62,903 bases of DNA. Source: Spizellomyces punctatus DAOM BR117. Taxonomy: Eukaryota. The DNA is taken from the NCBI GenBank assembly GCA_000182565.2, contig KQ257454.1; one strand, given 5' to 3'. Each line of letters opens with the position of its first letter. The stretch's first letter is position 1. The notes under the pieces were generated by a model, which was given only the letters and a program-made list of their open reading frames with translations, was not told where the DNA came from and searched no databases. Shown here one piece after another: positions 43,996 through 62,903 of this stretch. A program made the translations under genes and the position numbers.

Positions 43996-46326
43996 TTAAT
44001 CATCATCTATATCTACTTCTCGTCCTTCAAAAGTTGAACGGAGAGCGTAGAACTCCGCGTCCGAATCAATCTTGGTCGGTGGCATTTGCGCACTGTCCTC
44101 GGTGTCGGCATACTCTCCACCGCCTTTACCAACTAGCGAAATTCCGTTCATCCGTGCAAAAAGGAGCCTGAGTATTTTTTCTTTGTCAACCCACGAAAGA
44201 TCGCTAATGTCCACTTTGACATTAGGATCTAGTGGGGGTGATCCACGCGCCTCATCTTTCTCCGAGACAGATGGGGGACCTCCTATCGGTATCGGTATTT
44301 GTGCTGGCATTACTACGGACGTGGTCGGAACGGGTCGCGATGATTGAATGGGTGAAGTGACTGCTTTACTTGTCAAGATCTACACCGGTATTTAAGGTTG
44401 TCAGCAACATCCTGAAGTCGACGTATTAGTAGTTGGGGACAGCACTGACCGCCTTAAGCCTGCGGTTGTATTCAGCCTGTGCGGCCTTCCTGGCCGCATC
44501 TCGGTCTCGCCGTATTTCTGCACGTACATGCTCAAGCGCGTCCATGAAGAAACGTTCCAGGTCCGTTCGTTGGTCAAGGATATGCTGCGCTAAGCGCTAG
44601 GAACAACCAAGTCTCAATTAGTTCTGCGCACAATGCCTCATGGAGATTTCTGCGGTAAAATTACCTTTATATGCCTCATCTCCAGAGTTTTGCGATCTAA
44701 ACTCTCTTTGAGCTTACCAGCCACCCTTCTCACTTCATCTAGCTCATTTCGCGCTAAGTTGCGAATCATCTCTCGTTCATGCTCGAACTCTCGAACTACA
44801 TGAGATAGCGAATGTTCCATGCTTTGAATTTTTAAATGCAAATCTTTTATCTGTTGGAAGAATAAAAGTCCTCAATATGAGCTTACTGATCATCACAGGC
44901 GCGAGGAATGAAGCCTGTGCGATTACTTCTTTGGTTTGCTGTTTCGTCTGCAAGATCTTCTCCTTTACAATCACATCATGGAAGTCCTTTTCTTCCAGCA
45001 ACTGCTTATTGACGTTAGACAATCGACTATTGGTTTTCCCTAGATCCTCTCCTTCCTGAACATGATACCGAAGTGCCTCCGCCATTCGGATGTTTTGCCT
45101 AAAGACCTCCTTCGTGGTCTCCTTGAGGTTGGCTACTGCCTCCTAATGTACATTGTGATTAATGGCAACCGACTAGCTCTAGCGTTCCACCTGGAAATAA
45201 ACAGCTCCAAAAGAGTCACATATGCCCACCTTGTGGGCCTTTGTAGCAAGCTCGCTGATTTTCCGGTTGGCTTCCTTTTGAAGACGGATCTTTTCCTCGA
45301 AGAATTTGCGCTCCATTCGTGCAACTGTGTCCTTATGTCGACGCTCAGTATCGGCCAATTGCAGCTTCTGTTCTTCAAGTTCTTTCAGGAGTTCATGCCG
45401 CTTTTTCTGATTTATACATCAGTTTCTGACGCATTGCTTGAATGAATTCTCGGAAAGACTTACTCGGAAATCTTTTATTACGGAAAATTCCTGCTGCATT
45501 ACATTGAAAGCCGCTTCCTTCTCGGTCAACAGTACGTTCAGCTCTAAAAGGATACTACATGTTAGTGAGTTGCCGGCATGTCGGCAAACGGAATATTTAC
45601 CAGATATTCTTTGCTCATACTCGTCAACAAGATTTTCCCGGTCTTCATGTGACTTCTCAATCGCCGCCTCTATCTGGCCTCGAAGATCTTTGATCTGTCC
45701 TTCGCGCTTTTCATTCTCGCGATGGAGCGCTGCAATGACTTCCAACTGCCGGAAAATGAGCGCACATCTTCAGAACACGAATCTAATTTGCCATTTGCCA
45801 TGTACCGCATCCTTTTCTTGCTGCTGACATATCTCTTGTAGGGTTTCGTTCGTGCTAACTCTGAAGGTTCGAACAGTAATGGGCAGGTCAGGTTACCATC
45901 CACTTCCGGACTTTAATACATGCGGCAAGCAACCTACAGCCCATCCATTCGATCCCGATATTGAGTCAGGGATTTACTTGTAGCTTCTAATCTACATCAG
46001 AAAACGTTACTCATTAATGATAATGCCAATTCCCACCATTAGGTAACCTTATTTTTGAAACGCCTTACAAACATTCAGGAAACTTATTAGCAGGGCACGT
46101 ACGTCTGCTCCAAAGCAAATTCTCTTCCTGACACAAGCTCGCCTTTCGCATTGAGAACCATGTCCTTAGGTATTGCTACTGCTTTCTTCCGTTTCCCCCG
46201 CTTCTTCTTTCTATCACTGGCTTTGGGGCCGCTTGAGTCGGCGCTTCTTGCAGACGAGTTTTTATCTTTCTCGCTGTTTGCGGCTGCAAGCTCTTTCGCT
46301 TGCGCTATGGCACTAAGGGCGCTCAT
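43996..46326 (-). CDS. BBOF1: Basal body-orientation factor 1 (CCDC176), multi-exon coiled-coil protein
   Basis: Long coiled coil with QQEFSVIKDFR, ILDQRTDLERFFMDALEHVR and KVDISDLSWVDKEKILRLLFARMNG. Confidence 0.85.
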
Positions 46327-46452
46327 GATTGTGTCGCTTGCTGCTGTTAAGACGCAGGTGTACGATCCGACACTTGCAAGCGCGGAGAAAGATGCTTACG
46401 TAACCCAAAATATGACTTTGTGTTGTTTGATGTATTTAATTTTACACTACGC

Positions 46453-46539
46453 ATATATGGACGAGACCTTACAGCTATCTATGATTGGATACTTCGTATA
46501 TATGGACGAGACATTACAGCTGTCTATGATTGGATACTT
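46453..46539. repeat. Two-copy tandem duplication, period 45 bp
   Basis: ATATATGGACGAGAC(C/A)TTACAGCT(A/G)TCTATGATTGGATACTT starts at 46453 and 46498, with two mismatches. Confidence 0.9.
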
Positions 46540-46665
46540 TGGTAAACTTTCCCAGTTCTCCCTGGGTAGAATCACTCCCGTAAATTGGATCATTTGATCC
46601 CATTTGAATAATGTTCAACAACTCGGCTTGATGCAAGATGCCCGTAACGGTTCCTATGGGGTTGC

Positions 46666-49600: not shown

Positions 49601-51114
49601 ATAAAGTGCTCGCGATACAACTTAGGGGAGGCCTACCAACAAATCAGCTCAGAGGCCGTCCATGCACCGATTCCAGACCTCATACGTACAAACCGTGTAG
49701 GAATCAATGCGGAGCGCTTCAATTTCTTCAGCGACAGCCTGGAGCGCACTGTCACTCACAAACTTAATATGTCATAACACCGCAGTCACAGCGACTCCGT
49801 ACGGTGGATAAGCGGACTTCTATTGTCTGCAATTACCTTTTGATGTTGGAAATCGTAAGCTATCAAAGGCAGGATGGACCGCATCATGGCCCTCTCTTCA
49901 GAATTCAAAGATTGTGATGAGCTACCATTACTATTGGTAGCAAAGAGGTAACTAACTTGTCTTTGGGAATATCGCTGGATGGCAACGAAGCTTCACCCGG
50001 CTCACCCAGACGAGAATACGCCGTGCTCTCTTGATGACCTCGATCTACCGTATTGGGTTCCATGAGAAGCCTCCTTCGTTTGGCGCGCTATGGCAAAAAT
50101 CATGAGCCACACGAAAGGTTTCCACGTATTCCCCATCCTTACATTTCGGGCCAAAGTACATCACATACCTCCTGTTCTTCGACGACGGAATTTTCGTGGC
50201 ACAAAAACTGAGTGGAGTCATCGTTCTGAGCTTGGCGAAGGTTGACTAATCCATCTGGGAGACGTCCTGTACAGACCTCGTTTGATCGATGCACCGGATT
50301 CACTTTCATCAGACCGGCCAAACAGGCAGGTGGCGGTGTGGCTAAGAACATGGTTATCAGGTCCGTTGGAGATCGCAGAACCTTTTTGACTGGAGCGGTT
50401 CCACGGGATCCAGCCTTGATTCGGGCGCCACCTCCCAATGACTCTGCTTGGTGTGAAGCCTGGATTCCGCTGCCACCTTGCTTGGGCACATTCATAAGCG
50501 ACCGGCCGCCATTTTCGAGCTTTTGGCGGGGTGGCTTATAAGGTCGCGCTATGTTCAGTCCTCGCTGGGAGACCGAAGAAGATCGAATTGGGGACACTAA
50601 AGGAACAGTTGCTTTGCTATGCTCCTACTAGCCAGTAACACTCTAACAGGTAAGAGCACGAATTTTGATGAATCAACTATAGCCGTGACAAAATCACGGA
50701 CCTCATTCTCCAATTCTTTTCCGTTTCCCGGGCACAAGGGTGCTTCCACCATGCAAAAATAACGGTCAAAATCTATTTCATCACCGGGAACGACACGTCG
50801 CCATTTGTACAGGGTTTCAAGCTTGTTATCAAGATTGTCAAAGAGAGAAAGCTGAGGGAAAAGCAGATCGGGTCTCTGATTCAGCCTCATGGATAGCGTT
50901 TCCTATTGTTTGCTTCTTGCATCATCACAAGTACTACCTTGCGCGATTCTGCCTCAAACGTCACCGTCCCATCTTGCCAGTTTTTGACCTTCTTCTGGCG
51001 ATACAACTTGCGAATACTCCTCAATCAGCAAAAAAGGGTACCTCCAAGGTACTCGATTATAGAGAGATCCTGACTCACTTGACTACAATAAAGCACAGAA
51101 AATACTGTGGTCAT
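46666..51114 (-). CDS. ZGRF1: ZGRF1-like protein: N-terminal DUF2439 plus UPF1-like SF1 helicase (many exons)
   Basis: [36 protein letters not shown] Walker [53 protein letters not shown]. Confidence 0.88.
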
Positions 51115-51460
51115 TTTCGAGATGAGATACGGCACCAGCGTGTGAACGATCTCTCGACCAGTCTAATATAGCCTAATGTGTATACATTACATTCAGATTG
51201 GTCAGCATCCAGTAAGCACGGAATTGTCCTGCTACGGGAAGTCATATCAATGATTTTCTAATGACCTCCAAGTGTGTCCTTTTGGGAATTGGAATGCATT
51301 GTTTGAATCTACTCCACAGCATCCTCTGAAGGATTATTCAGAATTGCCTATCACACAAGGGCAGGCATCCTCATATATAATAGGGAAAGTATCAATTATG
51401 CACCTGAGGATGTAAGGTAGACCTGTCCTTTGGTATTCGCACGCAATTGCGAACTTGGAT

Positions 51461-51473
51461 TTTCGCGACGCGT
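51461..51473. promoter_or_regulatory. Adjacent SCB-like and MCB elements upstream of ZGRF1
   Basis: TTTCGCG (reverse complement CGCGAAA) directly followed by ACGCGT, about 350 bp upstream of the ZGRF1 ATG. Confidence 0.4.
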
Positions 51474-51540
51474 CTCGTCGTCATACCATATATAGCTATA
51501 ATCGTCATATAGCCATGTATGGCTAGAGTATGGCGCAGCG

Positions 51541-51610
51541 TGTAACAGTAGTTAGATTATGTAAGCCCCGCCGCGCCGACGACCTGTCAAAGTCGTTCGG
51601 TTCCGCGGCG
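51541..51610 (+). repeat. Candidate 6-bp target-site duplication (TGTAAC) and start of left terminal inverted repeat
   Basis: tgtaac|AGTAGTTAGATTATG; Polinton termini typically begin 5'-AG (often AGTAGT) with 6-bp TSDs. The partner end is not in the window. Confidence 0.6.
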
Positions 51611-51991
51611 GCCCCGTAATTAGAGGACTAATTGTCCCTTTATTGCATAGCGCCAATCACTTCCGATTGGTGCAAGAGGGACTGCACCGGTGGAGGTCGG
51701 AAATCTCATGCCGATGCTCCGCCGAAGGAGGGAGCAAGCATAAAAGAGCGCTGCTCCACAGTCCCTCAAGAGGGAGGAAAACAGAACTAGCCTAGTTAGC
51801 AACTCGAGTGCTGCAGAGGGCGACAGAACGGAACAGGACGGGTTTTGCATCAGCTCCATCTATGGTAACAATTTTTTGGATTTTTTTGCAAAGTGAATTT
51901 TTGGAGGACGGATGGAGTGGAGCTTTGGTATCAAAAATTCCGGGGATTCAAAAGTTCAAAATGAGCAAATTTTCTTAGAAGTTGCACATCT

Positions 51992-52198
51992 TTAAATATG
52001 TTGCCGATGTATCCATTGGTTGCATACATCTCCACATTGCATACATGCATACATGCTTCCCTTTAAATCCATTTTTGACAGCGCCCCTTGCACGGATGAA
52101 GTCCAGTGCAAATTCGCTTCGGAGTTCATTCGCCTAGCTCGCAGCATTCATTTTTGGTCTGAACCAATGCTGCCAAGAGTAACAGTAATAGAAACCAT
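51992..52198 (-). pseudogene. Small viral ORF (68 codons) with Cys/His cluster and one in-frame TGA
   Basis: MVSITVTLGSIGSDQK*MLRARR...YACMQCGDVCNQWIHRQHI; TGA at 52148-52150. Confidence 0.4.
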
Positions 52199-52268
52199 TC
52201 CAAATTAGTTCTTATGAGACAGTTTTTTGACATGTCTAGGTCAAGTTTTTGAATTCACAAAAATGTGC

Positions 52269-52529
52269 CTAGTCAAAGACAACTTCAAATATGGGAGGAA
52301 CGAAGGGTTTTGTTCTTTGTAAGGCACAAATGTCTATATATGATGAACAACACCGATGTCTTATGCTGATAGTTCTGTTCTTTCTAGTGCAAATCTCATA
52401 ATCACTTAAACAGGTATCGCATGATGCGATGCAACATTTTAGACATTTTTTAATCATCCCGATAATGGTAGCCCCACAGGTTTGACATTGCCAACCAGCC
52501 AAAGTAGCGGCATGCAATTTGTCAGGCAA
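52269..52529 (-). CDS. Small Cys-rich (putative Zn-binding) viral protein; start uncertain
   Basis: CQTC, CLKC, CDTC pairs within 86 codons; the ORF track start is not ATG. Confidence 0.45.
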   Translation of the reverse strand: MPDKLHAATLAGWQCQTCGATIIGMIKKCLKCCIASCDTCLSDYEICTRKNRTISIRHRCCSSYIDICALQRTKPFVPPIFEVVFD

Positions 52530-52723
52530 TTTGCTTCACTCTTTTGATGCTACTTTTGAAAAAGTAGCACATTAACTATTGTCTAAGTAAAAAATCTTCA
52601 TGATAATCCACATTATGGTTGGGGTCATATTTCCACATACATAAATGTTCCTTTAGGTTTGATGCGTACCTTTTTCTGTTGAGCGCGAGTTCTTCCCATC
52701 TTTATGGGAGCGGCTGGTAAATC

Positions 52724-53743
52724 TCACAATTCTTTTTCCACTTGTTTCTGCAATCGGTCCTTTTTCATCGCCTTTTTCTGTGGGGTCTGTGGGGCTGTTT
52801 TCTCAAGAGGGCGCTCGTTAGTTTTTATCAAGTCGTTATAATTGAAAATTCTACCAGGAATTCCTGCTATGACATAGCGGTGAGATTGTAACTCGTGGGT
52901 TGGACTGTAGACTTTTTCAATCTCATATATCTCACTGGAAAAGTTCTCTTGATGGGATTTCTTGAATACTCTGGTCTCATGTCTGACATGAACCCTATCA
53001 CCGACTGCAAAGATTTCAGGCTCTTTTTGATGCACTTTCTGCCAATACTTGGAAAGGTTCTCTAAAGCCTCGTATGGTTTTTCTACTGCTTCTTTGGGTG
53101 ACATTTTGATGCCACGGTGTTCTCAATGGTTTACCATGTTGACAAGTTCCCCAAAAACAGGAAGCCATTTATGACTTCATTGCTGGGTTAATATGCGACC
53201 AATTGCGGCTTTCAAGGTCTTAATCATTCGTTCGGCTTCGTATGCCATGTACACTATCTTGTGGTCAATAGCGTACTTTTCCATCAACTGTTTCCACTGA
53301 CCTGATTTATATGCTCCTCTGGCATCAGTAATCATTCGATTGGGTTGCATCTTGTATTTTCTCAAACATTTGTTCAATATAGACTCCATTGCGTTGGTGA
53401 CACTCGGTTCATCAACTCTTTTCAAAGGCTCGGCAAAAACCATTTTTGAGAACTTGTCCACACAAACCAAAATATGCGAGTTTCCGCCATTTTGTCTCGG
53501 GTGTGCATCATCGCCTAAAGAAAGCCAATTGCATTCCCATACGTCAAAAGGGGCAAAGGTTCTAGCAACATTTAGGTTCAGCCTCTTCTTCTTCCGATGA
53601 ATTTGGTGTGTTCGTTCATTCTCTAGGAATGTACGGACTTGTTTAAGAGTAATCGAAACTCCCTGCTGCTTGAGCATTTTGACCAAGGCGGGAGCTCCTG
53701 TGGGAGCTCCGGGGGAGTAATACAATCTTTTCAGTTCATCCAT
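52724..53743 (-). pseudogene. Retroviral-type (rve) integrase of Polinton type, disrupted
   Basis: LKRLYYSPGAP, WECNWL, ILVCVDKFSKMVFAEPLK, MITDARGAY, AERMIKTLK, HRGIKMSP, FAVGDRV...FKKSHQENFSSEIY; one frame with TGA at 53177 and 53123; may extend past a further TGA (52724) to ~52625. Confidence 0.9.
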
Positions 53744-53755
53744 ATCGCTTATCTC

Positions 53756-56700
53756 TTATGTTACAAAATGAAATTTGGCACCATCCATGTCTGTTGCTGC
53801 TTCAACAAAGCATTTGCTTTGGCATGTTGTGCATGGTACATTAGGTACTGTTGTATAATGTGTCCTACAGGATGTACATCTAAATGTCGCCCTCTTTGAA
53901 CTGAGTTCAGTGTCGCTCCCCCCTTTTGGGGGGTCGCTGTTGTTGGGAAACGGAGTTTGCATCCCAGCGCTGTTGTTGGGAAATGGAGTTTGCATCCAAA
54001 AATCCACCACTTGTCTTTCTGCATCATTGTGTTTATTTTGCTTTCGGCGATTTTCAGATATGTCTAGGGGCACTAAGTTTGTGTAATGATTGCTTCCGCC
54101 CTCGTTTTGTGGCACAACATGGTCGATTTCAAAGTTCCAGCGATAATTGTTCCATGTCATACCACGAAGGTCCTTGGATTTGTTCAAAAGTAATTGAATA
54201 TGAGACAAGAATTCTTCAAATGTACATCCTTCCACCCAAGACAATGATTTCTTCAATGATTCCCTCCATACTTCATTGGCAAGGTTATCAACCAACGTAA
54301 CATTGGAAAATTTGATATACTTGTTATGGCTGGAATGACTTACAGCGGTATATAACATTTTTTGCAACATCTTATTTTTCTCGTGAATTAGAAACCGTTT
54401 GTCAAATGTCTGACCTTGCGCCTTGTGAATAGTTGTGCAGTACCCGGAGAGAAAATATTTCTGAAAATCGTTCTTTGGCACCACACAACGGATGTCTTCC
54501 AATATGTTCGCCCTTCGACAAGTTACGTTGTCTCTATCAAAATCATAAACCTCCCAAGGTGTCATTTTGACGACACCTTGCTTTTGAATTGCCTTCCTCG
54601 AAATCAAAGGCGAACCTTTGACGAATATACAGTCTTGTGTTTTTCTCCAATCTTGATTATTCTTGCTGAATGGTATCTTCGAAGAGGTGAAAAACTTCTT
54701 TTTCAATCGAATTGCCTCATTTTTGTCTCTCTTCATATGGAGGTCATTGATGTAGTGACACATACGATTTGTAAATGCGATATTCAATCTAAAGTCCAGT
54801 ATTTCACTTTCATTCTCCACATACATGCTGTCTGGGAAAACAACATCAGTTCCTTCATTTAGAATCGATGCGGTCAGTTTATGCATCTCATTTGTTGGGT
54901 CATTAAGAAAACGATGGTTTTCCGTAAGCCTGATGTAATTGCCATCAGCAATATCTGCCACAAGTTTGGTCTCTAGATAGTCATCAGAAAGAATGTTTTC
55001 CCATGGTTCAACAGGAGGTAGTTGTTTTGAATCTCTGACAAGGAACACCCGACATCCCATTTGCTTGTAAATATATATGATATTCCATAGATAGGAAGGG
55101 ATTTGGGAAATTTCATCTATAAGTAGAACATTCGGGATATTGTTTTTCAGATGGGCAATTTCATCCCCCTGACCGATTTTCAATCCTTTGTGAATTGTTT
55201 TTCCTTTAACCCTATTGGCAGCGGCATTCGTTGGTGCTATGACAAGAACCTTTCTGCCCTGCTTGATGAAATATTTTTCAAGTCCTTTCAAGAGAACGGA
55301 CTTGCCGCAACTGCCATCTCCTTGTATCCTGGCAGATTGACCAACTCTGATAGCATCCAAAAACATTTGTACCCCATCGTCGCCTTTGCAAATACGTAAA
55401 TCGACTCTGTTTATCCAACGTTGTCGGACTCCAGTGTCGGCTCGTCGTGCAGTATTGATGTCCTTATGCAACTCTGGTAAGTCCTCTGGAATATGATATT
55501 TCCATAAGTGATTTATGAAAGCATCTTGCTTCCTTACGACAATACAGTCGGTTTTGACGGCCAAGACTTTATCAATTCCACCGACCGTTTCCTTAATCAT
55601 GTCGTATAAGAGACAGTTTGCATAATCCATGATTTGCTTGCGTATTGGGCGATGGGAGTCAAATGTTTTGACGTTTTGATACGCTGTTGTTTGAAACAAG
55701 TCAAGACCGTGTAAATCACGAAAAAACTTCTGTGTTATTGCAGCGTTCCATTGACCTTCGGCTTGCCATTTTTGAAAATAGTCTACGGCTTCTTCCTGTG
55801 TCGGGAAGAATACAGATTTGAAGTATCTTTTACTGAATTTCATCCCAAACAGTCCTACAAGACCGTTGATTGGTAGTTTCGCACCCTTGCTTCCGAGTGC
55901 TCCTACCATCAGATTGATGTACTTGCAGAAATAGTTTCCAGGGAGGGCACGGCTAGCAAGAATCATGTGTGTAATCTCATGCTGGATGTTCTCTTTGCAT
56001 AACTTATCAACGATAGCATTGACGTACCATCCATCGCCTTCGCAAGGTATGACATTCCTTGTCTTGACAAAGTACAAACCTGCCATTTTACCAAAGTCAC
56101 TTTTTGCAGCATCGTAAGGCTCAACAGTATCAAAGAACGAGAATACCGGATAGGGGAGAGGCATCTCATACATGCTGGTACGATAACACTTGGGTATGTC
56201 AATCGCTACCAAGTTGAGACGTTGATTTCTCTCATCATTTGTATAATCTCATAAATTGCCGTAGAAAATGCTTGGTTTTCCTGAAGTTTCCAGGATATGT
56301 AAAAGTTCATTTGAAAGCATTGATTTCTTTAGGTTGGGATATGTTGCCTTCAGCAACTCCAAGGATATAGCAGGTAATGATTTATCTTGGAATGGAATGT
56401 CCAATTTTTTGCAGATATCCTTTCTTTTCTTAAAGTCACAATCCAAGCGTACTTCGTTACCGCCATGCAGTATTATCCTTTCGATGCAACAGTTGCTATG
56501 TTTGCTAGATAGTTGAGTTTTTACCTGTGGAATCTTCTGAGTTTGTTTGATGTATTCTAAGAAGACTGATTCCATGACAAAAAAGTCCTTGCAGTCTTTG
56601 AGCAGGTAAATGGTCCTCCACCCATCAGTCGAACTTTGTACGTTGCCATCCACTTCCCGGTGCAAAATGTTCTTCACAATTTCTTCGACATTGCCTCTGT

Positions 56701-58153
56701 CAATGAACACATAATCTTCTTCGTACTCTTCTTCATCTTCATCTTCTTCTTCAGTCTTCCCCTTGGAACCCCGTTTCCTTTTTGTGTCAGCGTGTTCCGA
56801 TTGCACTCTCTGGGCTGTGGTTCTTTCTCGCAAGGATTTTTGCAATTTCTCGTCGCATATTTCCGAGAAATGATTGTTGTAAATAAAACCATACAAAGGA
56901 GGTAATGTCCACTTGAACTTCCAGTCTTTACCGACATCTTTCTTCATGCGTTTCGACAAATCTGCAATATCATCCTGCAAATACTGCATTCTAGACACAA
57001 ATGCTTTACAAAGGTCGATGCAGTAGTATGAACCCACATATCCCAATTTGAGCATTTCTTCGTTCAAATTGTTCAAATGTTTCAAATTGGCACCATTATC
57101 AAGTGAGTCTATCTTCATCGCATTCATTAGCCATTTGTCATCTAGAATTTCTCGACATCCTTTCCTTTGAGCCCGTTTGCTTCCATAAGCCCAAACATTT
57201 CTCACAGCATTGATTAGACATTGACCTTCTGGAAGACTGTCAGGACGAATAATCATTCCATCCTCTTGTTGCTCGTCAAAGAGCATCATCTCATCCAGTT
57301 TCACTCCATTGGAGAGATTAACGCGGGATAACACAACGGTTTCGAGAATGATGAAATTGTCATTGTAGTCAGACTCTGTATTCAAGACCAGTATACCATG
57401 TTCTGTTTCGTACGCTTCAATCAATTGTTTTGTTTTCTCCAAAGTCAATTGACCTCGGACATGTGGGAACACATGGTTCATTTGTCTCGACAATGATTCT
57501 CGGAAGCATGCATTTTCAACATTGCTGAATTTTTCCTCAAACTCATCCTCTTTCCATGCAATGTCATGCATCCAAGCATCTCCTTTCTCTGCGCGTAGTG
57601 CTTGCACTTGCACATAGCGAGAATCTTTTGACTTGGCAAATCTGTTTCCTTCTGTATATTGGCGTTCTCGATAAAATTGTGAATCATTATGCTCACACCA
57701 GTAGAGAAGATGTACCCATTCAATAGCATAATCAGCAACCGTTTGATTGGAGCGACGCGTCTCGGCTGCCTGTTTGGCAGCCGCAGAACGCCTGGCCTTT
57801 TGAGCGGCCATTTCGCGAGCGAGATCCTGATCATGCTCCATTTTTTTGCGCCTCAGAGTAACAGTGGCCTTACGAGCAATGGCTTGTCTCTGTGGGGCAG
57901 TACGAGTTGCCTGGGCCTTACGAGCCGCATCTCTTCTTTTTTCTTGTTCTTCAAGTAGGAATAGGGGCAAACGCTCAATCATCAAGTCTTCAAGGGCCAC
58001 TTTTCGTTCCCTTGTCCAGCCCTTGCGGTTGAAGTCACCGGCAACTAGTTTCCTCATCATCTTCACATAGTTTTTTGTCCCCACGCGAACGTTTTTATCT
58101 TCGATGGGATTGAATATCAAGGTCATCGTGTTGCAATGATGTAATGACAACAA
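53756..58153 (-). pseudogene. Viral replicase fusion: N-terminal region, pPolB-like polymerase, RecD/Pif1-like SF1 helicase, HNH nuclease, Zn ribbon; one in-frame TGA at 56249
   Basis: The 634-aa and 818-aa ORFs are in frame. PolB-like motifs AIDIPKCY, KLPINGLVGLFG, VKTDCIVV; helicase GDGSCGKS, IAPTNAAA, IDEISQI, QLPPV, LTENHRF, TIHKAQGQT; HNH IDHVVP...NHYTNLVPL...N. Confidence 0.88.
53935..53997. repeat. 33-bp tandem duplication inside the replicase C-terminus (MQTPFPNNS x2)
   Basis: CGCTGTTGTTGGGAAA(C/T)GGAGTTTGCATCC starts at 53935 and 53968. Confidence 0.9.
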
Positions 58154-58747
58154 ATTAACTTTGTTCTTTTTCTATCTTTAGCTTTATATGATATTTTTTT
58201 GCTTTCAAACGCATTTAGATTTACAGAGATTTACCACGCGGTACTGGTGGTGAAACGGCGAAGGTCGTTTGCCATTTATTAGCAAATTGATATATGCATT
58301 ATCTTTAAAGCCCAAATATATATCAATGTCCTTTTGGGTTCAGAAATCTCCAATCGGCGTTTCGGAACCGTCGAGTTGCTTTTTATATAGGCGCCACTTC
58401 ACCATTTGCTGTTTACACCCAGGATGTTTTCCCATTGTTACTTTTTAGTATTGTATTGTAAAAGGTAAATTATTTTTATCTTTAAACGCACATTTCGATG
58501 CTGTTTATATCACCAGTCAACATGCTCTGTGCTATTTATAGTAACGTGGCGGCGGTCGCCAGAAGATGTGTGGGTTGAGCTCGTTGCCATTTGCGGCTAT
58601 AAAAGAGGCGTGTCGGTTAGACATTTACCCTTGTACCACAAAGTTAGTTTACAGTTTACGGTAACTTCTGTGGTGCCAGCAGTCGAACTTCAAAACTTGG
58701 TAAGTTCTAATCTGGAACATTCGGAGCTCACATGCGCACCTAATAAC

Positions 58748-59806
58748 ATGAAATCATTTCAGCAATATCTACAAATCGCGAAACTCGTCATGACCAACGC
58801 TCCGACCATCCAGAAAACCCGAGCGCGTAAAGCTCGTCGTGCATCAATCAGCAAAACAGGACATGAGAACCTGAAAAGACCTGCCGACACAATAATCAAA
58901 ATTTTGAATAAATTTGAGAATGATAACTCCATTACTGAGACGGAGCTGGAACTTCTTCAATCGTTGGGAAACCTGTGTGTCGAGACCACATTCATTGCGT
59001 CACGGGGGAAGATATGTATGAGATACATTGATTATGACTTACTTAAACGTGAGTTTCAAAATCAAATGGAGCCCACGATTGCTGAGGATTCTACCAATGG
59101 TGGAGAGGATACAACACTTAACCAACCAGAGCCTCCTAACGGGGATGAACCAACTGACGGTGTGACAGACGGCGACAACGACAATGACGAGGAGGGTGGC
59201 AATGGCTCTGAGAGTTCTTATCATCCGATGAATGACGACGAGGATGACGAAGGGTCTGACGATACCTCTGAGGATGAAAATGCTCCTCAGAAAGACCATT
59301 TTTTTTCGATAACAAAGTTGACGAAGCCTTTGTTAAAAAGCAAAAAGTACATATCCTTTGGAAAAAGGTGTACAATCAGTTTTGAGGATTTGTGTACGAA
59401 GGCGCCAAATAGGAACAGAAAAGTTTTTGCTTCTTTCCAAAAGCACGGAACATCGGGTGAAGACCATAGTAAGGCTCTTAGGATGATTAACATTTTGATG
59501 TCGAAATCGAAGAAAGAACAACAAGCTCATAGGTTGACCGACCGAGAAAAGAAATACATCAAAATGTTCGAGATAAACCCGATAATTCCATTGGTTCTGT
59601 ACAAGTCACCAAGACTGATTGAGGAGTCAAGTGTAAGCGACAGAGCCCTTCTTAAGCAGTGGTTCGATGCCAATCAGCAAGACATTCCTGCAACAGCATT
59701 GAAAGATGTTTTTTGTGATTTTCTGGATGCCATGAAGGCTGGAGATTGGAAAAAGACGGAAGTGTACTTTCATAAGATGGGAAAACCTAAAAAGAGGTCT
59801 GAGTAG
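58748..59806 (+). CDS. Uncharacterised viral protein with long acidic linker (about 352 aa)
   Basis: Intact ORF; first ATG at 58748 (MKSFQQY); D/E-rich centre; TATAAAAG at 58598-58605 upstream; divergent from the replicase. Confidence 0.75.
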   Translation: MKSFQQYLQIAKLVMTNAPTIQKTRARKARRASISKTGHENLKRPADTIIKILNKFENDNSITETELELLQSLGNLCVETTFIASRGKICMRYIDYDLLKREFQNQMEPTIAEDSTNGGEDTTLNQPEPPNGDEPTDGVTDGDNDNDEEGGNGSESSYHPMNDDEDDEGSDDTSEDENAPQKDHFFSITKLTKPLLKSKKYISFGKRCTISFEDLCTKAPNRNRKVFASFQKHGTSGEDHSKALRMINILMSKSKKEQQAHRLTDREKKYIKMFEINPIIPLVLYKSPRLIEESSVSDRALLKQWFDANQQDIPATALKDVFCDFLDAMKAGDWKKTEVYFHKMGKPKKRSE

Positions 59807-60000
59807 GCCATGTTACATGAAATTCACGCACGCGTGAAGTTTGTGTGACAGTGTATATAGTTGAATTTCATAGCTTTTCATGTATATATGTCTTCATATG
59901 TCTTCATTGTTTTGTCGTTTTCAAAAAAATTAAACCCCAAAAATAACCCCCCCCTGGCTTAGCGGGCAAACTCAATTCACAACTTGTTCACTTCATCACA

Positions 60001-60174
60001 TCAGATGTAAACCACTCTTCTAACAGCACGAGGGCCATATCGACGCTTTCGAGTAGCCGCTGCTTTTCTTGCTCCGATAATCCTTCGATTTCTAGCACGA
60101 GCGGCTGCCTTCAACCCCTTGTTGGGCATCGCCACTATGTTGACGAGTTTTCTATGCGTTGCTTTCTTAGCCAT
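60001..60174 (-). CDS. 57-aa very basic protein, candidate virion core/DNA-condensing protein
   Basis: MAKKATHRKLVNIVAMPNKGLKAAARARNRRIIGARKAAATRKRRYGPRAVRRVVYI; no acidic residues; directly downstream of the MCP gene. Confidence 0.65.
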   Translation of the reverse strand: MAKKATHRKLVNIVAMPNKGLKAAARARNRRIIGARKAAATRKRRYGPRAVRRVVYI

Positions 60175-60208
60175 TAATATAATTCAATATGAGGTTGTCC
60201 TATCCATA

Positions 60209-60345
60209 GCTACTTTTAAAAAAAGTAGCGTCAAAAGAGCTCTTTTGATGCTATTTCGCTATGGAGTTGAAGGGGAACTAATAACTTAGAGTTCGCATGA
60301 AAGGCGAACTCGCTCTTTTTGATGCTACTTTTTCTAAAAAAGTAG
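60209..60345. terminator. Cluster of palindromes/hairpins downstream of the MCP stop
   Basis: GCTACTTTT-AAA-AAAAGTAGC; perfect palindrome TCAAAAGAGCTCTTTTGA (60231-60248); GAGTTCGC-N7-GCGAACTC; CTACTTTTT-CTA-AAAAAGTAG. Function is inferred. Confidence 0.55.
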
Positions 60346-60348
60346 TGT

Positions 60349-61697
60349 TTAAGCCGGAAGCAATCGCACACCGTCACGGTCGATGCACATCTCATGGTCT
60401 GTGGTCCAGAAAACATGGAATGTCTTGTCCTTGAAAGTTGGGATAGAAGCACCGGTGAAATCTGGTGCCACTTCCGGAGGATTGGGATACTGAGAGACAT
60501 TGATGAGAATATGTCCATCAGCTAGAGTCTGAAGTCCTCCGCCAATCATGTCGGGAGTTTGCTTGAAATTTTGTCTCCATGACCAATGCTGTATCTTTTT
60601 GCCTTCTAGAGTCCATCCTTTCAAATCAGTCATCGTTGGCGCAAACTTGATGTCGTTAAAGTCCTTGTTCCTTTGCGAAAGAGCATACATCTCAGGGTCT
60701 ATAGTAGAGACCACTCCAGAGTGTTCGGAACCATTGGAAATCGATTTACCTTCAGGGAAGCATTGTGTGCCCACTTGAATAGAAATAGTTCGAATTGCTG
60801 CATCATCTGAATAATTCAATTTGTCTACATCGGTCCGTACATTGTCAGTGGTGACCAACATCAAAGACGAAACAGAGGACTGTTCACCTGTCACAAGCGA
60901 CAATTGCTGTATGCGACTGTCTTGTCCAGCAAACTCCTGACTCCAGACCACTTGCATGGGGATGGTCAAGTATTCGTTTGATTCCATCAATGACAGGATT
61001 TTGTTGTAATATTCAGCGACTGGTTCAGCAAACTGACATATTAATTCATTTTCAACTATCTTGAAAGACGTGATTCCTGTGGATGTGGGCAAATTTTGGT
61101 AAGGTCCGTCTCGGCAGTCATTTCAATCTGAACGCCGCCTTTCACTAGACAGAGAGGGAAAGCAACTTCGTTTTGGAAAAATGACAGCGATGAGGCTGTG
61201 ACAGTGTAAGCGTTGTTTTGAGCGACCACGGCTGCACGGTTGGTGTCCTCGCTGGAATAATATTCGCATTGACCCAGATGTTGCTTGGTTTCCCATGATG
61301 TCGTTGCATTTTCGTGAGCAGTAAACAAATTGTAATCATTGAGGTCCTCCACTATCCTTCCGTTAATCAAAACAGATTGACGCCTCCATGCAGCATCGGT
61401 TCCGGATTGGCATAGACGGTATGTAGCATCTACAGCAACGGCTGGCGAGCCATCAGCCTTTAACCCTACTAGACGATATTTGTGCAAAGTTTCATTCACA
61501 AGCCAAAAAAGTTTGTTGTCGGCTATTTTAAATGAGAGTTTCCCTCCTGCTCGGCAATCACCACTTCCGTTTGTCAGCTCGAAGCGGACCTGAGAACTAG
61601 GTTGAAAATTAAGAACAACTCCGTTCTTTGCATTTCTTTTATAGGTAAAGACGCTTGGGACTCGTCAAACCTCAGTTACCTGAATTTCTGAAGACAT
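60349..61697 (-). pseudogene. Major capsid protein (double-jelly-roll, PLV-like), about 450 codons, with an early TGA and one frameshift
   Basis: ATG 61697 (MSSEIQVTEV*RVPSVFTY...GGKLSFKI...VLINGRIVEDLNDYNLF...FPLCLVKGGVQIEM); frameshift near 61092 into LPTSTGITSFKIVE...ISIQVGTQCFP; beta-rich; adjacent to the ATPase. Fold is inferred. Confidence 0.75.
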
Positions 61698-61733
61698 TTT
61701 GGTTTAACACACTTCTAGAAAAAAAAAATGCGG

Positions 61734-62411
61734 CTAGGAAAAACCGACTCTAAAAGGTCGTTTCGAACTCTGTAGATTGATGTGGACGAAATGGAATGGC
61801 TTCCTGGTATTCTCCATAACAAATTTTTCGAATACATCCTCGGGCAAAGCGAGAGATAACCCGGCTTCGACCATCTTTTTCAACTCTGATTTCAAAGGTC
61901 GAAATATAATCCAGTTTGTTGCATTGCTACAGATGGCAGGACTGTTGTGATAGAAATATTGACTCGACAGAATACAGGTAATCCCAGCATGCCTTCCACG
62001 GGTAGCCAACTCATCGAGTGCTTTCTTATGCCCTTTTTGCATATTATAGTCATCGATGATAAGAAGCAAATCCCGTTTTCTTCCGCTGCGAATGAACTCT
62101 TTCAATTGTTCCTTGTGGATATAATTGAGTATCTCGTTGCTGATTTGGTCAAATAAATGAACCTTTTTGCTCATTCTTAATGGATTCCAATTGGTGTCGT
62201 GCGGATTCGGTGTTATTATTATAGTATTCGAATACTGCTTTTTTAGAAACAATTTGCATATCATGGCTATGTTCAATGTCTTCCCACTAAATCGAGCGCC
62301 ATTGTAAACACAGAAGGCATACTTCCTAGGAAGCCTCGGGTCAGTATTGTCTTTTATGCGTCCAGAGACTTGACTAGGCAAAGGGGCGATGGTAATAGGC
62401 TTTTCCTTCAT
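61734..62411 (-). CDS. A32/FtsK-like genome packaging ATPase
   Basis: Walker A GARFSGKT, Walker B LLIIDD, ATRGRHAGITCILSSQ, PAICSNATNWIIF. Confidence 0.92.
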   Translation of the reverse strand: MKEKPITIAPLPSQVSGRIKDNTDPRLPRKYAFCVYNGARFSGKTLNIAMICKLFLKKQYSNTIIITPNPHDTNWNPLRMSKKVHLFDQISNEILNYIHKEQLKEFIRSGRKRDLLLIIDDYNMQKGHKKALDELATRGRHAGITCILSSQYFYHNSPAICSNATNWIIFRPLKSELKKMVEAGLSLALPEDVFEKFVMENTRKPFHFVHINLQSSKRPFRVGFS

Positions 62412-62456
62412 CGTGCTTGTTTTTTATTTGCTCTGTATCTATAATAACATAGAAAG

Positions 62457-62903
62457 ATGAAAAAGTTGATTCTCGACAGCAGCAGGGCTACAAATGGGGA
62501 CAAAAACCAGCCGAGATGGACTCTAGCAGAGCCCATAGCATGTGATAGGATTCGTTACAACTCCATCATCCTGCCTCTGTCATATGACATCGTTAACGCT
62601 AGAAACAATACTGTATCCTTTTATGACGCCGGGATGGGTAGCACCCCTAGGACTTTCACAATTCCTCCTGGAACATATAGCCCTGATGATTTGGTCGATG
62701 CCTTGAATACAGGATTCAATTCGACGGGGACTCAGTCATATACAGTTGATTATTCTCATGTAAATGGTCAAATCACCATAACCGGTTCCACAGGACCATT
62801 CAAGGTCCTCTATCCTCAGACCACGGCAAGTAAACTACTTGGATTGGTTCAGACGCAGCAATCTGACCCCGGAAAGTCGATAACCTTTTCGAATCCTATC
62901 GAT
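62457..62903 (+). CDS. Minor capsid (penton) protein, truncated by the window end
   Basis: MKKLILDSSR...IILPLSYDIVNARNNTVSF...FTIPPGTYSPDDLVDALN...KLLGL; open to the end; pattern typical of PLV/virophage pentons. Confidence 0.75.
   Translation, partial: MKKLILDSSRATNGDKNQPRWTLAEPIACDRIRYNSIILPLSYDIVNARNNTVSFYDAGMGSTPRTFTIPPGTYSPDDLVDALNTGFNSTGTQSYTVDYSHVNGQITITGSTGPFKVLYPQTTASKLLGLVQTQQSDPGKSITFSNPID

Follow-up and report, generated by a model that had tools for sequence, protein, structure and literature searches.

The window analysed here, a 62,903-nucleotide stretch of contig KQ257454.1 from the soil fungus Spizellomyces punctatus DAOM BR117, carries toward its right end a small endogenous DNA virus of the polinton-like ("MELD") kind, which is integrated in the chytrid genome and cut by the right end of the window. 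The window itself is eukaryotic, with PPR, EMC2-TPR and RING domains on long open reading frames (ORFs) in Pfam searches. From about 51.9 kb on, the GC content falls from 0.48 to 0.42 and stays low through to the window end; the genes of the element lie mostly on the minus strand. Several of these genes are broken, and the lesions are biased toward CpG dinucleotides on both strands; decay is light overall and not exclusive to CpG. Four genes have frames that are defined by alignment to homologues and were not chosen by eye, namely an integrase, a replicase, a capsid candidate and a packaging ATPase, with 2266 codons in all.

The retroviral-type (rve) integrase is a pseudogene at 52628..53743 on the minus strand (Pfam PF00665, E=1.3e-8), and its homologues, one of them from Powellomyces hirtus, are 47-53% identical to it. 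The frame is interrupted by TGA codons at 53177, 53123 and 52724, and the first catalytic residue, an Asp in 5/5 homologues, is replaced by Asn (AAT, 53528). Three additional changes, R>Q at 53345, R>H at 52988 and A>V at 52739, are all of the CpG type, that is, C>T or G>A at a CpG.

The replicase (53759..58126, minus strand) joins a superfamily 1 (SF1; Dda/RecD-like) helicase to an HNH endonuclease, as recognized by the Pfam families AAA_30, AAA_19 and HNH_4; in PHROGs its homologue P0013 matches a Dda-like helicase. In homologues the protein is a single ORF of about 1300-1380 amino acids that begins with an uncharacterized N-terminal half, fused in Gaertneriomyces and partial in Geranomyces. 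One TGA (56249) interrupts the frame, and three helicase motifs have lost residues on which all covering homologues agree: the Walker A motif by G>S (AGT, 55310; G in 6/6 homologues), motif III by G>R (AGA, 55034; G in 6/6) and motif VI by R>H (CAT, 54335; R in 3/3). The same gene also carries R>H at 55493 and D>N at 54275, as well as a 33-bp tandem duplication (53935-53997) whose two copies do differ by CG versus TG, as first noticed in the initial annotation of this DNA; the difference is at one position, ACG in one copy and ATG in the other.

The A32/FtsK-type genome-packaging ATPase (61734..62411, minus strand) scores 24.7 bits against Pfam PF04665, where the cutoff is 22.8. Its ORF is complete and ends in TAG, and an Arg found in 7/7 homologues has become Cys (TGT, 61929). 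The adjoining gene is the major capsid protein candidate (60349..61697, minus strand), which was placed by tblastn mapping and by a phmmer match to P0029 with E=3.9e-114. P0029, its best homologue, is SPPG_05487, encoded on another contig of the same strain. The candidate contains a TGA at 61665, a frameshift within 61086-61092 and a CpG-type R>H at 60511.

All codons singled out in the initial annotation are indeed present on the minus strand, both the TGA codons (52148, 53123, 53177, 56249, 61665 and 52724) and the five motif-breaking missense codons just described. The claim that the latter arose at former CpGs is borne out to the extent that all five replace homologue-invariant residues and are compatible with CpG transitions. 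Contigs from sequencing runs dated 2020 agree with the window without a single difference over 51924-52919, 53291-53761, 53819-55014 and 55045-55462, and thereby span the sites 52148, 52724, 53528, 54335 and 55310, the other lesion sites being uncovered.

CpG bias of the lesions

The homologue-supported frames contain exactly five in-frame stops, and all five are TGA. Under context-free models based on present codon usage, TGA should account for 22.5-24.8% of new stops, and the probability of finding five TGA codons out of five is 5.8e-4 to 9.4e-4; a 30-fold CpG rate would lift the expected TGA share to 0.62. Homologues have Arg at three of the five sites. At 53123 it is present in all four close integrase homologues, with Gly in the distant P0010, and at 52724 in 5/5 homologues, P0010 included; at 61665 it is present in the lone homologue that covers the site, the same-genome paralogue, which is 86% identical over that half of the capsid candidate. 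The TGA at 52724 is a premature stop because the close homologues extend some 25-35 residues beyond it. The initial annotation had described every premature stop as a TGA one transition away from CGA. The first half of that statement stands in the supported frames and falls at 52148, where the short frame around the TGA has neither a neighbouring Pfam match nor backing from homologues; this TGA cannot count as a premature stop because it lies in no supported gene. The second half is true of any TGA, and draws support from the three sites with Arg.

Departures were counted next, a departure being a column in which all homologues agree and the window differs. The integrase has 109 invariant columns and 16 departures, 6 of which are CpG-type; the corresponding figures are 346, 27 and 4 for the replicase, 128, 3 and 1 for the ATPase, and 239, 20 and 1 for the capsid candidate, where two departures fall at the frameshift junction and are probably artefacts. 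Single base changes can explain 49 of the total of 66 departures, and 12 of those 49 are C>T or G>A at CpG. The share expected under the null is 1.9-4.2%, and the corresponding P values range from 1e-10 to 6e-7.

As a control for the integrase, replicase and ATPase, each intact homologue was taken in turn as the focal sequence. Arg has become Cys, His, Gln, Trp or stop in 7 of the 66 departures of the window, and in 3 of 240 when the homologues are focal (P=0.0011, Fisher test); leaving out the capsid, with 6 of 46 in the window, gives P=0.0007. Coding-strand C>T accounts for the stops, R>C and A>V, while coding-strand G>A accounts for D>N, G>S, G>R, R>H and R>Q; both strands have been struck by CpG-type changes, in agreement with the proposal that the decay was directed on both. 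A hand tally of the base 5' of the mutated C in the 12 CpG-type changes (T 4, A 3, C 3, G 2) reveals no clear preference.

Base composition points in the same direction, as the initial annotation had anticipated, with an effect that is mild and uneven. The ratio of observed to expected CpG (CpG o/e) is 0.82 in the element versus 0.95 in the rest of the window, and the products of CpG transition are in excess (TpG 1.18 versus 1.12, CpA 1.31 versus 1.15). In 2-kb windows the element has CpG o/e values of 0.63, 0.84, 0.76, 1.00 and 0.88, while 25 host windows have a mean of 0.95 with a standard deviation of 0.08 and a range of 0.81-1.15 (one-sided Mann-Whitney P=0.016 for the 5 element windows against the 25). 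The depletion is strong only at 51.9-53.4 kb (o/e 0.55-0.65), which is the integrase end, and the integrase, with the lowest CpG o/e, also has the most CpG-type lesions (6/16).

A comparison with other copies in the genome had also been proposed, and differences between copies are in fact enriched at CpG. Paralogue contigs, recovered from reads aligned at 80% likeness, have about 80-85% nucleotide identity to the window, with 95 differences over 497 bp at 60472-60968 and about 96-100 over some 565-600 bp at 61890-62569. The 40 difference rows available for scoring include 30 transitions, and 10 of the 40 are exchanges between CpG and TpG or CpA. A spacing of three bases is common among the differences, which places them on third codon positions; this argues that the copies represent separate viral lineages and did not arise by duplication of a dead one.

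Extent and further features of the element

The right boundary originally placed at 61931 is not the end of the element, which reaches 62776 or further and probably runs beyond the window. Alignment to diverged paralogue contigs continues as far as 62569 and 62776, arguing that it is the window, and not biology, that cuts the element short. A plus-strand ORF (62457..62903), open at the window end, lies where the element continues. No inverted repeat pair was found inside the window, outside of which the right end of the element lies.

Just to the left of the drop in GC and CpG is a CpG-rich repeat of about 400 bp (51411..51808, no strand assigned), with several diverged copies in the genome. 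Diverged contigs cover 51485-51808 and hang loose ahead of 51411/51485 and beyond 51802/51808. At this repeat the CpG o/e stands near 1.0, dropping to 0.55-0.65 from about 51.9 kb, and the window copy of the repeat retains CpG in 5 of 6 visible CpG-type differences. The repeat may be the terminal region of the element, a promoter or a separate small repeat. In the same part of the window, a chromatin immunoprecipitation sequencing run (X16) has peaks of 16-78x per orientation at 46000-46563 and 49948-51639, versus about 1-4x elsewhere; the peaks stop just before the virus, which is itself at background depth.

The gene content fits a polinton-like or MELD virus in several respects. An integration module is present in the form of the broken rve integrase, and so is an A32/FtsK-type packaging ATPase, which is 84% and 75% identical to the "FtsK" proteins of Powellomyces chytrid fungus MELD viruses 1 and 4, respectively. 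Homologues of the integrase and replicase come from Powellomyces, Gaertneriomyces and Geranomyces, plus Logan assemblies. No minor capsid (penton) protein was recognized inside the window, past the end of which the element extends. A Polinton/Maverick in the strict sense would have a protein-primed family B DNA polymerase (PolB) and an adenain-like protease; no PolB or protease domain was found in the ORFs searched against Pfam and PHROGs in the window part of the element, and in place of PolB the element has the SF1 helicase fusion.

A fragment of the replicase matches SPPG_03309 of S. punctatus DAOM BR117 at 100% identity. This public gene model of 1021 amino acids, at 53756-58153, covers just 37% of the read-through frame, and a broken viral gene thus seems to have entered the annotation as a host protein. 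About 900 amino acids of the replicase, its N-terminal two thirds (56249-58126 and 55500-56212), are conserved across elements of the Spizellomycetales and matched no family in Pfam or PHROGs; that this part acts as a primase or polymerase would be only a guess. At its other end the replicase runs about 90 residues beyond the end of all homologues, past the HNH domain (53759-54030), and this extension, which carries the 33-bp duplication and ends in a tail rich in Cys, may result from loss of the natural stop or be a lineage-specific addition. The ATPase, besides the loss of its Arg, has window-specific V>C (62310) and T>C (62256) changes in columns that are conserved in 7/7 homologues; each requires two base changes and is not explained by CpG transitions.

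The assignment of 60349..61697 as a capsid gene is only a lead. Neither Pfam nor PHROGs gave a match, and a PDB profile search returned 0 matches at E values up to 10. An AlphaFold2 model of the paralogue P0029, built from a 4-sequence alignment, is poor (pLDDT 40.5). The neighbours of the candidate in the ESM Atlas, which score 0.94-0.95, are viral clusters, 10-12% of whose domains are of capsid or double jelly-roll (DJR) types; the cluster domains include small shares of Capsid_N, Capsid_NCLDV and DJR-like.

The sole long plus-strand ORF within the element (58529..59806) is open and includes an acidic stretch; it had no match in Pfam or PHROGs. Downstream of the capsid candidate, the frame listing has a small and very basic ORF of 57 amino acids (60001..60174, minus strand), possibly a DNA-binding or core protein. 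Nor did Pfam or PHROGs match the ORF at the window end, the ORFs of the flank (48.5-51.9 kb) or one at 52272-52529 that is rich in Cys.

Proposed methylation and alternative explanations

The lesions, their CpG context and their excess over the controls are read directly from this DNA, and host 5-methylcytosine (5mC) together with its spontaneous deamination is probably what produced those at CpG. In this model, a virus would have integrated in the chytrid genome and been methylated at CG and silenced, as transposons are. Spontaneous deamination of 5mC would then have converted CpG to TpG or CpA on both strands, much faster than other sites change, and function would have been lost independently in several genes. 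Because CGA becomes TGA, and a C|G step at a codon border gives D>N, G>S or G>R, one process could have made most of the recognizable knock-outs: three to five TGA stops and the losses of the catalytic Asp, of three helicase motifs and of the invariant ATPase Arg.

That 5mC in Spizellomyces is confined to transposons is taken from the literature (PMC12695648), and 5mC deamination is an established mutagen of methylated fungal repeats (PMC13297926; PMC8016269). In one RNA run, about 6% of which was read, depth on the element is 0-0.32 per orientation, and it is as high as 6.24 on a host gene at 46.6-47.1 kb, 5 kb from the element.

A number of observations weigh against this account or limit its reach. 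Methylation of the element itself, past or present, is inferred from the mutational footprint. The CpG depletion is mild, with three of the five element windows (0.84, 1.0 and 0.88) inside the host range, and the flanking repeat at 51411-51808 is CpG-rich. Two of the stops find no Arg in homologues, which have G, G, K and D at 53177 and D, C, I, T, Q and Q, in a variable linker, at 56249; a CGA ancestor is possible at both. The frameshift in the capsid candidate, located by tblastn mapping beside short T and C runs, is a non-CpG event, and 37 of the 49 single-step departures are not of the CpG type. Departures in the window are also within the range of the intact homologues (16 versus 11-24 for the integrase, 27 versus 4-72 for the replicase); they are no more numerous, the copy is only lightly decayed and many of the differences are ordinary lineage divergence. 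Departures accrue over the whole branch since the nearest homologue, at about 50% identity for integrase and replicase, and some may therefore predate integration. No DNA of a relative was found in viral contigs (ATPase, replicase and integrase alignments) or in metagenome contigs (ATPase and replicase). The spectrum between copies in the genome rests on 40 of 356 difference rows, and in 8 of its 10 CpG-type differences it is the window that keeps the CpG; the other copies thus look more decayed there, and this one is not the most decayed.

The inferences originally drawn from the codons therefore need to be narrowed. Lesions biased toward CpG on both strands are confirmed, and their interpretation is in part supported; inactivation almost entirely by CpG transitions is an overstatement in view of the frameshift and the non-CpG departures. 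Homologues bear out an ancestral Arg at 53123, 52724 and 61665 and do not at 53177 and 56249. The proposal that the ancestral virus can be reconstructed fails, at the two stops with no Arg, at the frameshift and for the part of the element outside the window.

Among the alternatives, the one that survives best, although unlikely, is that the CpG bias is real and has another source than host methylation of the integrated copy. It could belong to the viral lineage, through virus-encoded methyltransferases or time spent in other methylated hosts, or reflect a CpG mutability independent of methylation. Many polinton-like viruses (PLVs) are said to encode DNA methyltransferases (preprint 10.64898/2026.06.19.733378), and the mild overall depletion and the long branch over which departures were counted would both suit this alternative. 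However, Arg>C/H/Q/W changes are nearly absent when intact homologues are made focal, the CpG-type changes strike catalytic and invariant residues that are indispensable to a replicating virus, and Pfam and PHROGs reveal no methyltransferase gene in the part of the element inside the window. As for mutability without methylation, the host flanks are not CpG-depleted (o/e 0.95), arguing that CpG is not generally hypermutable in this genome.

It is quite improbable that the pattern is one of chance and selective reading, in which an ordinary decaying insertion happens to have acquired TGA codons and CpG-compatible changes. The relation of TGA to CGA is indeed trivial, two of five stops have no Arg behind them, three quarters of the single-step departures are not of the CpG type, and one lesion is a frameshift. 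But the frames and stops were set by homologue alignment, and the outcome within them is highly skewed, both for the stops (five of five TGA, P<0.001) and for the departures (12/49 against a null of 2-4%, P<1e-6), with a homologue control at P=0.001.

A genome defence that enzymatically deaminates the cytosines of repeats, in the manner of repeat-induced point mutation (RIP), in place of passive 5mC deamination, is a still more doubtful explanation. The family is multi-copy, as seen from the contigs at about 80-85% identity and from SPPG_05487 on another contig, and RIP and RIP-like hypermutation are known in Dikarya (PMC13297926). A RIP-like process would share with the element the inactivation of repeated or mobile fungal DNA by C>T. 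The differences between paralogues are largely on third codon positions, however, pointing to separate viral lineages, and there is no clear 5' base preference at the mutated C. RIP is usually called at a TpA/ApT of about 0.89 or more and a (CpA+TpG)/(ApC+GpT) of about 1.03 or less; the element is negative on both indices (0.60 and 1.38). RIP was rejected on these indices, on a TpA o/e that shows no excess and is below that of the host (0.58 versus 0.70) and on the low density of mutations, the ATPase departing at just 3 of 128 conserved columns; the inactivating C>T changes, unlike those of RIP, are restricted to CpG.

Finally, the idea that TGA is read through or recoded in a functional element, which the interruption of frames by TGA only might suggest, has next to no standing: it was rejected because catalytic residues are lost (the integrase Asp, the helicase Gly and Arg, the ATPase Arg) and the capsid candidate is frameshifted, and in addition RNA is nearly absent, the residues of homologues at the sites are ordinary ones (Arg at three, varied at two), and TGA itself ends the integrase frame and the small basic ORF, with TAG ending the ATPase and TAA the capsid candidate and replicase.

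Known relatives and significance

The element is a member of a known group, given the PLVs and MELD viruses already published from chytrids. Six MELD virus genomes have been described from a Powellomyces data set, one of them with an SF1-helicase replicase (PMC8502044). The hosts of Powellomyces MELD viruses 1 and 4 belong to the Spizellomycetales, the same order as here (Starrett et al., Virus Evol 2021, PMC8502044), and MELD virus 4 resembles the present element in having the SF1-helicase replicase in place of PolB. Those genomes are third-party assemblies on contigs of 18.6 and 21.2 kb, whereas the element described here is chromosomal, broken and from another genus, and only about 11 kb of it is inside the window. 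One PLV-related element has been reported as integrated in the middle of a large contig of S. punctatus (Bellas and Sommaruga, Microbiome 2021, PMC7805220), a finding echoed in a preprint (10.64898/2026.06.19.733378); the host species and the kind of element are the same, and the published element may be this copy or the paralogue on the other contig. According to the same preprint, many chytrid genomes have regions, presumed to be viral, with A32 ATPases.

The mechanism proposed here is that of the 5mC-driven decay of methylated repeats, with CG changing to TG or CA, CpG depletion, and both nonsense and missense consequences. Examples are the CpG depletion of methylated vertebrate DNA and DIM-2-dependent C>T changes in fungal repeats (PMC13297926; PMC8016269). 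The target here is instead a DNA-virus insertion in an early-diverging fungus in which N6-methyladenine (6mA) is dominant and 5mC is transposon-restricted, and the depletion is much milder than in old vertebrate repeats. Another relevant case is that of the endogenous giant viruses of Amoebidium appalachense (PMC11244446), a unicellular opisthokont in which the silence of integrated DNA viruses is associated with host 5mC. That paper concerns silencing, and the terms deamination, CpG depletion, pseudogene and stop codon do not occur in its text; here, in contrast, methylation is deduced from the mutational footprint. No paper stating that endogenous PLVs decay by CpG transitions was among those listed by the literature searches, and no such statement is made in the passages of PMC7805220 and of preprint 10.64898/2026.06.19.733378 that deal with such elements. 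The element family, its presence in this host, the restriction of 5mC to transposons and the mutagenicity of 5mC are already published, and the present case is a clean new instance of a known process, with no new mechanism or kind of system.

The value of the locus is that it joins chytrid PLVs, the 5mC of Spizellomyces mobile DNA and 5mC mutagenicity in one place, with a consequence that is legible in individual codons. It also provides an inexpensive marker, obtainable from sequence alone, for which endogenous virus copies were methylated and for how long, and it cautions against treating such copies as reactivatable defence elements. We tentatively suggest, with less assurance than for this copy, that in a 6mA-dominated early-diverging fungus the residual 5mC, restricted to transposons, may irreversibly inactivate endogenized polinton-like viruses by mutation, leaving a graded footprint that is strongest at the integrase end. 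If so, CpG decay would be both a clock and a silencing map for DNA-virus endogenization in chytrids, and could explain why such elements turn up broken rather than reactivatable.

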